Source: Candidatus Peregrinibacteria bacterium CG10_big_fil_rev_8_21_14_0_10_55_24 (GTDB lineage: Bacteria > Patescibacteriota > Gracilibacteria > Peribacterales > Peribacteraceae). From it: a stretch of 40,000 nucleotides of DNA. The DNA lies in contig PFDV01000005.1 in the NCBI GenBank assembly GCA_002772745.1, positions 95,609 through 135,608 on the forward strand, read 5' to 3'. Position 1 is the stretch's first letter. Every line of letters begins with the position of its first letter. Below the pieces are notes generated by a model. The model was not told the origin of the DNA, did no database searches, and saw only the letters and a program-made list of their open reading frames with translations. Both the position numbers and the translations under genes were made by a program. Of the stretch, positions 37,596 to 39,833 are shown piece by piece.

Positions 37596-39833
37596 ATGCT
37601 GCTCCTCGTACGTATCCAGCAGTGGGATGAGAAGGCCGGCAAAACCGAGCCCAAATTCGGACAGCTCCTCACCAACCTCCATGAGCAGCTCACCGGGGAA
37701 ACGGTGAGCTTTGAACTCGTTTCGTACCGACAGCACATCTACTTCTACATCCATATCCCCGTAGAGATTCGTGAGCTCATCGTTGGGCAGGTGTACTCGC
37801 TCTATCCCGATGCGGTGATTGAGGAGCAGAAAGGCGACTATGCGCATACGAAGGCCATAGACTCTGCACATTTGCTCATGACGCGTCTTACGCAGCGGCG
37901 CACCGATATCTACCCTTGGAAGCGCTTCGAGGAGTTCGATGGTGATAGTCTTGCCGGACTCTTCACGGTGATGAGCAAGGCCGAGGAGAACCAGCAGCTC
38001 TGGGCGCAGGTGGTTGTGGAGCCGATTCCCGACAACTTTGCCTTCAACCTCCGCAGGAATATCAAGTACTTCCTCAACCGTTTCCGCAAGCTGGTGCGTT
38101 TCCGTGATTTCATCAAGGCACGGGCACAGGGGGAATTCCGTACGGCGGAAAAACAGGCTGTTTCCAAGAAGTACGCAGAACGTCACTACCATACGGTTGT
38201 GCGCGTCGCAGCCATAGCGGCGGATGAGAATAAAGCACGGGGGCAGCTTCGGGCACTGGAACAGGCCTTTGCGCAGTTCAATACGCTCGACTACAACGGA
38301 TTTTCCATCGGCAAGCGCTACAGGGGGGAGGCGGCACTCAAACGCTGGCAGGAGCGGTCGCTCGATGGGTCTTCCTGGATGAGCATTTCGGAGCTTGCGG
38401 GTCTCTACCATTTCCCCGACCCCGACATCGTCCCGCACATGGTGCATGTGATGGCACGCCGGTCCGAGCCGCCGCTGGATCTCCCCAAAGCGGGGGAGCA
38501 TGACGTTCTGGCGTTCGGGCTGAGCAATTACCATAACCAGCGCATGCCGTTTGGGCTTCTTAGAGAGGACCGTGCCCGACATCTCTACGTCGTAGGAAAG
38601 TCCGGAACGGGAAAGAGCAAACTCCTTGAGCAACTCATCTCGACAGACATCAAGGAGGGGAAGGGTGTCTGTGTGATGGACCCTCATGGAGACTTGGTCG
38701 ATGCCGTTGTGAAGCACATCCCCAAGGAGCGAGCTAAGGATGTCGTGTACTTCAATCCGATGGACATCGAGTACCCGATCGCCTTCAACCCCATGGAGGC
38801 GGTGAACCCCGAACTCAAGCTTCGTGTGACTATCGGATTCATCGAAATCTTCAAGAAGCTCTTTGGCGCCAACTGGACGCCGCGTTTGGAGCATGTGCTC
38901 AGGCAGACGACGCTCGCACTTCTTGATAGCAAGGGGACGACGGTGTTCTCCATCCTCAAGATGCTCAGCGACAAAAACTACCGTCAGAAGATTGTCGCGA
39001 AGATCGAAGACGCCGTGGTGAAGAACTTCTGGGTGAACGAGTTCGCCGCATGGAGCGAGAAGTTCGATAACGAAGCCATCACGCCGCTCCTCAACAAGGT
39101 GGGGCAACTCGTGTCCACCAACCTCATCCGCAATATCATCGGGCAACCCTTTAACACCTTCAACATCCGTCAGGTGATGGATAACCAGAAGATCCTTCTT
39201 GTGAAGCTCAACAAAGGGCTCCTCGGCGAGGAGAACGCGGCGCTCCTGGGAGCGATGATGATCACGAAAATCGAGCAAGCGGCGCTCGAACGAGCGGATA
39301 CCGACCAGGCGCAGCGTAAGGAGTTCTACCTCTACTGCGACGAGTTCCAGTACTTCGCCACGGATACCTTCGCCGAGATTCTCTCCGAGGCGCGCAAGTA
39401 CCGCCTCTCCCTGACGGTTGCTCACCAGTACATGGGACAGCTCAGTGACCTCGTGCGCACGACTGTCTTCGGCAACGTCGGCACCATCATCAGTTTCCGC
39501 GTGGGCGCGGAGGATGCGCGCATCCTGGAGCAGGAGTTCACGCCGATCTTCAAGGTCCGCGACATCATCAACCTTGCTGTGCGCGAGTTCTACATCAAGA
39601 TGAGCGTGAAGGGGGAGACGCGCGACGCCTTCTCCGGCACGACGATGGATTGCCCCACGCCTGCCAAGAGCCACAAGGACGAGATCATCGACTTCTCACG
39701 CAAGACCTTTGCTAAGCCAAAGAAGGAAGTGGAGGATCTCCTCAGGAAGTGGGATGAGAGCGGCGGGGATATTGCCCAGGAGGCGTGGTATTCCGGTGCT
39801 CTGGATGAGGAGTTTGCACCTCCCATTGTTTGA
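37596..39833 (+). CDS. P-loop ATPase of the TraD/VirD4/HerA-FtsK type, copy 2 (embedded in the array)
   Basis: Start set at ATG 37596 (MLLLVRIQQWDEKAGKTEP), which aligns with the copy-1 N-terminus MTQTLLRIRAGKENERGP. The upstream 46 codons of the track ORF run through hairpin A5. Walker A GKSGTGKS is at 38595-38618. Also present: VMDPHGDL, Walker B FYLYCDEFQYF, EARKYRLSLTVAHQY and FGNVGTIISFRVG. Confidence 0.88.
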   Translation: MLLLVRIQQWDEKAGKTEPKFGQLLTNLHEQLTGETVSFELVSYRQHIYFYIHIPVEIRELIVGQVYSLYPDAVIEEQKGDYAHTKAIDSAHLLMTRLTQRRTDIYPWKRFEEFDGDSLAGLFTVMSKAEENQQLWAQVVVEPIPDNFAFNLRRNIKYFLNRFRKLVRFRDFIKARAQGEFRTAEKQAVSKKYAERHYHTVVRVAAIAADENKARGQLRALEQAFAQFNTLDYNGFSIGKRYRGEAALKRWQERSLDGSSWMSISELAGLYHFPDPDIVPHMVHVMARRSEPPLDLPKAGEHDVLAFGLSNYHNQRMPFGLLREDRARHLYVVGKSGTGKSKLLEQLISTDIKEGKGVCVMDPHGDLVDAVVKHIPKERAKDVVYFNPMDIEYPIAFNPMEAVNPELKLRVTIGFIEIFKKLFGANWTPRLEHVLRQTTLALLDSKGTTVFSILKMLSDKNYRQKIVAKIEDAVVKNFWVNEFAAWSEKFDNEAITPLLNKVGQLVSTNLIRNIIGQPFNTFNIRQVMDNQKILLVKLNKGLLGEENAALLGAMMITKIEQAALERADTDQAQRKEFYLYCDEFQYFATDTFAEILSEARKYRLSLTVAHQYMGQLSDLVRTTVFGNVGTIISFRVGAEDARILEQEFTPIFKVRDIINLAVREFYIKMSVKGETRDAFSGTTMDCPTPAKSHKDEIIDFSRKTFAKPKKEVEDLLRKWDESGGDIAQEAWYSGALDEEFAPPIV

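Follow-up and report, generated by a model that had tools for sequence, protein, structure and literature searches.

A soluble ATPase whose sequence places it closest to type IV coupling proteins (T4CPs) was found to be linked, throughout its clade, to a large family of cysteine-rich proteins predicted to bind several zinc ions. Its gene (COU80_02705, annotated as a hypothetical protein; here ATPase2) lies at the downstream end of a 40,000-nucleotide stretch of contig PFDV01000005.1 (the whole of which is called the window) from Candidatus Peregrinibacteria bacterium CG10_big_fil_rev_8_21_14_0_10_55_24, an uncultured groundwater bacterium. An earlier interpretation made from the letters alone (the sequence-only reading) had picked out ATPase2 and a second gene, ATPase1, as a pair of TraD/VirD4/HerA-like ATPases, and had suggested that the ATPase acts on the cysteine-rich proteins or on a nucleic acid bound by them. 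The observation was confirmed and the interpretation was partly supported, the linkage being conserved for ATPase2 and not seen for ATPase1. Tentatively, ATPase2 is proposed to be a coupling-type motor with the zinc proteins as its clients (cargo or adaptors), which it would hand to the patescibacterial type IV secretion system (T4SS).

Conserved linkage of ATPase2 to the cysteine-rich family

A hidden Markov model (HMM) was built from the ten complete cysteine-rich paralogues of the window (P1-P10), and the loci around ATPase2 orthologues were scanned with it. In the first seven loci, with ATPases of 54-81% identity, a family member was present within 2 kb in six. The full set comprised 80 loci, one genome per species, at 52-85% identity. 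A cysteine-rich gene was found within the fetched flank of up to 10 kb in 61 of the 80 species and within 400 bp of the ATPase gene in 47 loci, with 45 of these 47 pairs being co-directional (31 upstream, 15 downstream). In some loci, for example L016, L020, L070, L024 and L038, the two reading frames overlapped by a few bases. When the ATPase2 orthologues were arranged in a neighbour-joining tree, the linkage appeared in every major clade, and the 19 loci that lacked it were confined to about five subclades, several of these loci being short contigs.

The remaining neighbours varied by locus and included DUF4215 giants, a sulfate transporter, hydrogenase maturation genes, beta-helix proteins, and clpB with an S1-domain gene. 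TrmB-like open reading frames (ORFs) were present in 31 of the 80 loci, and in L003 and L009 such a gene (TrmB, PF01978) adjoined the ATPase2 orthologue. A fixed orthologue of P10 beside ATPase2 was considered and rejected, since the adjoining paralogue varies; the partnership is thus one of the ATPase with the family and not of a particular pair of genes.

One clade had no array. There, the central module of the cysteine-rich protein (~315 aa) and a 93-aa zinc-ribbon module were encoded as separate genes directly downstream of the ATPase. In this clade (L007 5013-12766; also L024, L031, L033, L037 and L038), one strand carried, in order, a CIRCE element, clpB and the S1-domain gene, then the ATPase2 orthologue and after it the genes for the central module and the 93-aa zinc ribbon. 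On either side of this stretch, L007 had ruvB, an AddB-like helicase-nuclease gene and rmuC.

The sequence-only reading had proposed to look for co-occurrence of the ATPase family with the cysteine-rich family in other genomes. For ATPase2 the outcome was strongly positive (61 of 80 species, 47 adjacent). For ATPase1 the link did not hold: in two related genomes its orthologues kept the order gyrA-(rpmE)-hrcA-ATPase1...SHMT-dnaX, and no gene of the cysteine-rich family lay within 10 kb of them. The 5.6-kb gap that separates ATPase1 from P1 in the window is therefore considered incidental.

The cysteine-rich proteins

The ten paralogues shared 39-45% identity with P1. Each consisted of a basic zinc-ribbon module (zf_Tbcl + zf_Tbcl_2), an acidic middle with a double cysteine-rich region, a helical stretch and a second basic zinc-ribbon module that is homologous to the first (29% identity, E 1e-16). 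Runs such as CKDCLECLNCFECNLCIECIDC, with eight Cys each two residues apart, were observed in the family. No signal or membrane segment was detected in the cysteine-rich proteins.

The C-terminal module and the tail were the best-conserved parts, with mean column conservation of 0.71 and 0.86, respectively, and were basic (pI 8.7-9.4). The near-invariant CYLKEVY end, noticed earlier among the window paralogues, was found to extend across species, the last 12 residues being the most conserved stretch in 60 homologues. Clustering at 90% identity gave 6,725 or more clusters for the family, nearly all of them without a name or labelled hypothetical at source, and apart from the terminal treble-clef fingers no Pfam model was available for it. 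The AlphaFold2 (AF2) model of P10 had a pLDDT of 83.1 and a pTM of 0.82; when it was compared with PDB and BFVD, no E value fell below 1 and 0.03, respectively. PADLOC returned no match for the zinc protein.

Small gene pairs of the toxin-antitoxin type were seen near the ATPase within arrays of related genomes, namely HEPN + nucleotidyltransferase (L001 9051-9748) and HicA + HicB (L003 5337-5776). In a metagenome contig (Ga0074195_1000011, L153), the cysteine-rich genes fragmented into many short ORFs under the standard code; the breaks fit a Gracilibacteria-type code in which UGA encodes an amino acid, consistent with the family reaching recoded lineages. The cysteine-rich extracellular proteins reported for Peribacteria in PMC4736985, the only paper found on Peribacteria and cysteine-rich proteins, were considered as a known counterpart and set aside.

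Family placement of the two ATPases

ATPase1 and ATPase2 aligned with 41% identity over 533 aa (BLASTP, E 7e-144). Both contained GK(T/S)G(M/T)GKS (GKTGMGKS in ATPase1, GKSGTGKS in ATPase2), DPHGDL, WSEK[YF]..EAI....NKVGQL.ST..IRNI.GQ, FYLY.DEFQ.FAT, EARKYRLSLT.A.QY and FGNVG...SF.VG, as expected of the paralogues they had been taken to be, and the Walker A and B motifs were intact in both. With Walker A at residue 399 in ATPase1 and 334 in ATPase2, the N-terminal regions are ~390 and ~330 aa long. The NCBI model of ATPase2 starts at 37458 and is 791 aa long; more than 100 orthologues were 739-756 aa and aligned from residue 1-3, which supports the start at 37596 (745 aa).

Profile searches put both ATPases in the TraD/VirD4/HerA group, where the sequence-only reading had placed them. 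An entry 100% identical to ATPase2 carried precomputed matches to PF26449, PF10412, PF01935 and PF02534. In a local Pfam scan, ATPase2 matched T4SS-DNA_transf (E 9e-12) and also TrwB_AAD_bind, DUF87 and TraG-D_C. Its scores were 45.0 bits for PF02534 (T4SS-DNA_transf, cutoff 20.1) and 30.3 bits for PF10412 (TrwB_AAD_bind, cutoff 20.5); ATPase1 scored 28.1 bits for PF10412, and the T4SS-DNA_transf gathering score was passed by ATPase2 only. TrwB was the only relative in PDB found by sequence search (E 4e-5), aligning at Walker A and Walker B. The TrwB_AAD_bind alignment covered residues 326-619, with ~240 residues between the Walker motifs, the position that the all-alpha domain occupies in T4CPs.

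All NCBIfam T4CP models were far under cutoff for the window ATPases (37-49 bits against 250-650), the best being conju_CD1115 (49 bits, cutoff 250), with SXT_TraD at 47 (cutoff 366). The VirB4-type models AAA_10 and CagE_TrbE_VirB matched neither ATPase at E <= 0.01. DUF87 matches were above cutoff (29.7 and 32.7 bits), spanning profile positions 15-202 of 220 in ATPase1 and partial in ATPase2, for which the DUF87 match was weaker than the T4CP match. PADLOC reported mad8 (E 1e-16 and 4e-13) and weak HerA matches, all within the ATPase domain, and phrog_5156 matched both proteins (E 7e-74 and 4e-68). On this basis, the ATPase halves are assigned closest to coupling proteins of the VirD4/TrwB type.

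The C-terminal tail of the ATPase2 orthologues followed the consensus [ED][EQ]xFxxP[LIV][VIL] in 14 of 14 aligned sequences, with F740 and P743 invariant. Among the 49 long DUF8128 proteins of the whole library, 25 were closer to ATPase1, eight to ATPase2 and 16 were equidistant; by these sequence distances, ATPase1 is the more widespread type of the candidate phyla radiation (CPR) and ATPase2 represents a smaller clade.

The pairing of orphan ATPases is a published, phylum-wide feature: a report on Patescibacteria (CPR) (Quinonero-Coronel et al. 2025, PMC12102498) gives 5,713 T4CP (VirD4-type) homologues in 2,918 genomes, about two per genome. Since it is already described there, the orphan pair is regarded as a known, unexplained feature of the phylum.

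The N-terminal domain and its likeness to VirB4

The N-terminal region, which the sequence-only reading could not assign, corresponds to Pfam PF26449 (DUF8128). The assignment was made through precomputed matches for entries 100% identical to ATPase2 and ATPase1, PF26449 being newer than the local Pfam copy, and the domain was present in almost all listed orthologues. With a profile of the two N-terminal domains searched against a library of 1.84 billion proteins, DUF8128 was recovered in 2332 clusters at 50% identity; proteins of Bacillus phages carry the domain as well.

An AF2 model of ATPase2 residues 1-337 (pLDDT 83.8, pTM 0.79) was compared with PDB using Foldseek. The top 14 matches were all to TrwK, the VirB4 of R388 (E 5e-7 to 3e-4, probability 1.0). 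The DUF8128 model ends at the strand leading into Walker A, and the matched part is therefore most likely the N-terminal domain of TrwK. Judged from the model, DUF8128 resembles VirB4, most plausibly its N-terminal domain. An hhalign comparison with gp155, the VirB4-like protein of phage G, aligned only the Walker A.

The DUF8128 clusters also contained proteins of ~420-590 aa composed of one N-terminal membrane helix and DUF8128 without an ATPase; examples are P0452, P0466 and P0483 (430-535 aa). These probably correspond to the TrsD homologues, which are described in PMC12102498 as similar to the N-terminus of VirB4 and as the commonest T4SS component in Patescibacteria. With their single membrane helix and DUF8128, the standalone proteins resemble the TrsD class.

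Phage homologues

A full-length homologue, gp156, is encoded by Bacillus phage G (hhalign probability 100, E 2e-39, 678 columns). In the phage G module (L171, 85934-98093), gp153 matched TrbL_4 (VirB6-like) and gp155 matched AAA_10 and P-loop_TraG (VirB4-like), followed by gp156. In phage CP-51 (L172, 62652-74373), an actin-like ALP segregation protein was followed by the DUF8128-ATPase gp91 and the Replic_Relax protein gp90. These T4SS-like and plasmid-like modules are annotated as hypothetical or MsbA-like. The occurrence of the wider family in T4SS-like and relaxase-like contexts supports a coupling-type ancestry.

The possibility that the ATPase2-zinc protein pair is phage-borne was dropped: no ATPase2-type genes were found in IMG/VR viral contigs, and the zinc protein had no tblastn match in GenBank phages.

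Gene content of the window, the ATPase1 context and the hairpin repeats

The features of the window are listed in Table 1. Plausible ORFs were scanned with Pfam, NCBIfam and PHROG, which assigned an M23 peptidase, EamA, a methylase, GyrA, HrcA, SHMT, 5-FTHF cyclo-ligase, DnaX, the ten cysteine-rich paralogues and three TrmB-like regulators and left four small ORFs without assignment. No relaxase, VirB4 or channel gene was among them, in agreement with the earlier statement that the window holds no other secretion or conjugation genes. The position of ATPase2 inside the cysteine-rich array, between P10 and P11, was likewise borne out. The G+C content was 47% over P2-P4 (18000-24000) and 49% at 30-32 kb, compared with 53-60% in the rest of the window, which suggests that the array members differ in age or origin.

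The CIRCE-like operator is an inverted repeat, ATAGCACTC-N9-GAGTGCTAT, 10 bp upstream of hrcA, which is in turn followed at 61 bp by ATPase1. The hrcA-ATPase1 order was also found in L011 and in L012 (9238-12715, another Peribacteria genome), the latter again with CIRCE. From this arrangement, ATPase1 may belong to the HrcA heat-shock regulon, occupying the usual place of grpE-dnaK.

Hairpin-forming runs of the heptamer ATGAATK were found directly after stop codons, in intergenic positions and only inside the array (22 matches against 0.07 expected), and they flank ATPase2 at 37430-37522 and ~39840-39930. The sequence-only reading had placed ATPase2 behind the same hairpins as the cysteine-rich genes. 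The hairpins are indeed present on either side of it; as a conserved regulatory part of the system they were rejected, because none of 170 related loci carried them, and they are considered a repeat specific to this genome.

Table 1. Features of the 40,000-nucleotide window, with positions counted from its first letter.
Feature	Position	Strand	Remarks
M23 peptidase, EamA, methylase	upstream end of window		
gyrA	3825-7028		
CIRCE-like operator	8022-8048	+	2 mismatches; 0.02 chance matches expected
hrcA	8058-8771	+	HrcA Pfam match E 6e-23
ATPase1, 892 aa	8832-11510	+	architecture of ATPase2 plus a Lys/Glu-rich C-terminal extension
SHMT, 5-FTHF cyclo-ligase, dnaX	downstream of ATPase1	-	
Cysteine-rich array, ten paralogues (P1-P10)	17131-37430	+	554-582 aa each, 32-49 Cys
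P1	17131-18879	+	
P2	18953-20629	+	
P3	20729-22420	+	
P4	22427-24106	+	
P5	24106-25770	+	
P6	25842-27524	+	
P7	27598-29286	+	
TrmB-like helix-turn-helix regulator, within array	29283-30062	-	NCBIfam TrmBL1 E 5e-8, below family cutoff
P8	30162-31868	+	
Second, weaker TrmB-like regulator, within array	32168-32959	+	NCBIfam TrmBL1/TrmB E ~1e-3; aligns with the other two
P9	33090-34778	+	
Third TrmB-like helix-turn-helix regulator, within array	34883-35644	-	NCBIfam TrmBL1 E 3e-8
P10	35727-37430	+	
ATGAATK elements, seven including arms	17067-17118, 27527-27578, 31871-31958, 34781-34807, 37433-37522, 39857-39883		
Heptamer-repeat hairpin (ATGAATK)n, P10-ATPase2 gap	37430-37522	none	
ATPase2, 745 aa	37596-39833	+	DUF8128 N-terminal domain, then coupling-protein-like ATPase
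DUF8128 domain of ATPase2	37596-38495	+	~residues 1-300, without membrane helix
Walker A of ATPase2, GKSGTGKS	38595-38618	+	residues 334-341; columns invariant in 14 orthologues; aligns to TrwB Walker A region
Walker B region of ATPase2, FYLYCDEFQ	39324-39350	+	residues 577-585; columns invariant; aligns to TrwB Walker B region
Acidic C-terminal tail of ATPase2, ...DEEFAPPIV	39804-39830	+	conserved in 14 aligned orthologues
P11 start, eleventh cysteine-rich paralogue	39939-40000	+	runs past window end; reads MQQICANTWCKRSFEIADED...

Interpretation

The tentatively favoured reading starts from ATPase2 as a soluble NTPase of the T4CP lineage that carries DUF8128 in place of a membrane anchor. 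It is the lineage-specific member of the ATPase pair and is coupled genetically to the zinc proteins across Peregrinibacteria, Gracilibacteria and Abawacabacteria, with TrmB-like regulators often accompanying the latter. The clients of the ATPase2 hexamer may be the zinc proteins, serving as cargo or adaptors. By analogy with TraD-TraM, DotL-DotN and VirD4-XVIPCD, candidate contacts on the zinc protein are its basic C-terminal zinc-ribbon module and its tail, and on ATPase2 the acidic tail at the C-terminus. ATPase2 could then deliver its clients, or nucleic acid that they bind, to the dispersed patescibacterial T4SS, docking on the VirB4 platform via its VirB4-like N-terminal domain. The analysis establishes homology, domain architecture, the lack of a membrane segment and the conserved linkage of the genes; what we infer here is physical contact between ATPase and zinc protein, a direction of action and the involvement of a T4SS.

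Several observations weigh against this proposal. No membrane-helix-like segment was found in either ATPase (maximum 19-residue hydropathy 1.43 for ATPase1 and 0.99 for ATPase2, threshold 1.6), and no T4SS gene was found in any ATPase2 locus read or in the window. The match of DUF8128 to TrwK (TMq 0.41-0.48) is at fold level only, with the aligned residues not inspected, and a DUF8128 sequence-profile search against PDB returned nothing relevant, leaving the VirB4 likeness without a sequence-level signal. The linkage was also weak in the reverse direction: of 78 metagenome loci chosen around a cysteine-rich gene, 11 contained the ATPase, as did five of the 23 that were at least 15 kb long, the reason being that the cysteine-rich family is far more numerous and has arrays of at least 12 copies. 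The zinc protein is conserved over its whole length and is not just a signal on a variable body, so that a cofactor fits better than an effector. Zinc-stabilised folded proteins are poorly suited to passage through a T4SS channel. According to PMC12102498, only 148 of the 5,713 patescibacterial T4CP homologues are near virB4, and in Southlakia epibionticum the T4SS genes were essential for epibiotic growth but the T4CP homologue was not.

The lack of an anchor and of T4SS neighbours, together with the full-length conservation of the zinc proteins, makes a T4SS-independent cytoplasmic machine nearly as likely. Here, an exapted hexamer would act either on nucleic acid, moving or remodelling it, or on the zinc proteins, which it would unfold or load. 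The paralogues, under TrmB-like control, would serve as specificity subunits, their basic zinc-ribbon modules binding the nucleic acid. PMC12102498 treats an exaptation of the T4CP in Patescibacteria as possible, and the non-essential Southlakia gene would fit. Both terminal modules of the zinc protein are basic treble-clef pairs of a type common in nucleic-acid binders; the zinc proteins were, however, matched to a known system by neither PADLOC nor Pfam, which counts against this reading. The short-form operon lies among ruvB, the AddB-like gene, rmuC and clpB, both ATPase paralogues are found near HrcA-regulon elements, and the ATPase domain is also like HerA and mad8, a defence-system ATPase. 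Against these points stand the N-terminal domain, which in the model resembles most plausibly the part of VirB4 that docks in the T4SS inner-membrane complex, and the full-length phage homologues with their VirB6-like and VirB4-like or relaxase-like neighbours.

Within the T4SS-coupled reading, a more specific form was also considered, in which the zinc proteins would be the missing T4SS clients: a diversifying repertoire of cargo or pilots, possibly with nucleic acid, whose basic C-terminal zinc-ribbon module is read by a soluble coupling ATPase that plugs into the VirB4 platform by its VirB4-like N-terminal domain. This is considered unlikely.

Adjacency without function, in which an abundant and duplication-prone array became fixed by ATPase2 in an ancestor and was then inherited, is improbable. 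Such an origin would suit a family of this size, with arrays and singletons away from the ATPase, an adjoining copy that is not a fixed orthologue, and a linkage that was lost in 19 loci. However, the linkage persists at 52-59% ATPase identity while all other neighbours change, the adjacent pairs are almost always co-directional with some frames overlapping or nearly abutting, and the short-form clade retains an operon of ATPase, central module and zinc-ribbon gene without the array. These features make chance synteny unlikely, and the ATPase1 loci of the two related genomes, with no cysteine-rich gene nearby, argue in the same direction. The region is very unlikely to be a mobile element, or a defence island against phages or plasmids whose motor would be HerA- or mad8-like: the PADLOC matches, PHROG 5156 and the phage homologues, the toxin-antitoxin and HEPN/nucleotidyltransferase pairs in two related arrays and the lower G+C over P2-P4 point that way, but the mad8 similarity is limited to the ATPase domain, integrase and transposase genes, a tRNA-flanked boundary and known defence partners are all missing from the window, the zinc proteins have no defence-system assignment, ATPase2-type genes are absent from the IMG/VR viral contigs and the locus is seemingly inherited vertically across the whole class.

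Significance

A T4SS is essential for epibiotic growth in the one patescibacterial species tested, according to PMC12102498. The locus described here gives a specific candidate partner for one orphan coupling-type ATPase across a whole class. That partner is a family of thousands of predicted multi-zinc proteins with a confident model fold and no PDB or BFVD match, and the predicted VirB4-like DUF8128 hints at a way for a coupling protein to dock when it has no membrane anchor. If the zinc proteins are T4SS clients, substrates would be coupled in a way that is new, and these host-dependent bacteria would have their first candidate T4SS substrates. If the T4SS link fails, the conserved module of ATPase, zinc protein and TrmB would still be previously undescribed, and the zinc-protein family would still be among the larger uncharacterised families of these genomes.

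Orphan coupling-protein homologues and a catalogued DUF domain were already known. The zinc-protein partnership, the VirB4-like DUF8128 fold and the phage T4SS-like context are new to the literature searched, in which no report of any of the three was found; searches on DUF8128, phage G gp156 and zinc or gene family expansion in Gracilibacteria and Peregrinibacteria gave nothing on the family.

Comparison with known systems

The window genes almost certainly belong to the same protein class as the orphan T4CP homologues of Patescibacteria, which occur at about two per genome and rarely near virB4. In the passages of PMC12102498 consulted, there is no mention of DUF8128, a VirB4 likeness, a cysteine-rich link or TrmB regulators.

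With the T4CPs in general (VirD4/TrwB/TraD/TraG; PF02534, PF10412, PF12696), the window ATPases share a nucleotide-binding domain of the FtsK/HerA superfamily with Walker A and B motifs. T4CPs carry an N-terminal transmembrane domain, whereas the window ATPases have the soluble ~300-aa DUF8128 in that place. T4CPs are also encoded with a relaxase and/or VirB4 and VirB6, which in this family is true only of the distant phage homologues. The PHROG 5156 phage proteins (phage G gp156, 0305phi8-36 ORF201 and CP-51 gp91) have the same full-length architecture of DUF8128 and ATPase; they differ in being phage-encoded, in their low identity of ~23%, in lacking cysteine-rich partners and in adjoining VirB6-like and VirB4-like genes or a relaxase-like gene, as the window ATPases do not.

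The likeness to VirB4 (TrwK) is structural and moderate (TMq <0.5), and the ATPase half has no VirB4 model matches, unlike phage G gp155. The DUF87 matches point towards HerA, but the window yielded no ORF resembling NurA. The likeness to mad8 and HerA of the anti-phage systems in PADLOC is confined to the ATPase domain.

The conserved acidic C-terminal tail of the ATPase2 orthologues has a counterpart in F-plasmid TraD, whose acidic tail binds TraM. In the Xanthomonas T4SS, VirD4 recognises many clients, the XVIPCD-type effectors, through a common C-terminal domain, and in the Legionella DotL-DotN/IcmSW coupling complex the zinc-binding DotN is bound to the tail of the coupling protein. The likeness to XVIPCD effectors and to DotL-DotN is one of analogy, no homology being detected, and the putative clients in the window differ from both in being conserved over their full length and in carrying many predicted zinc-binding cysteines.

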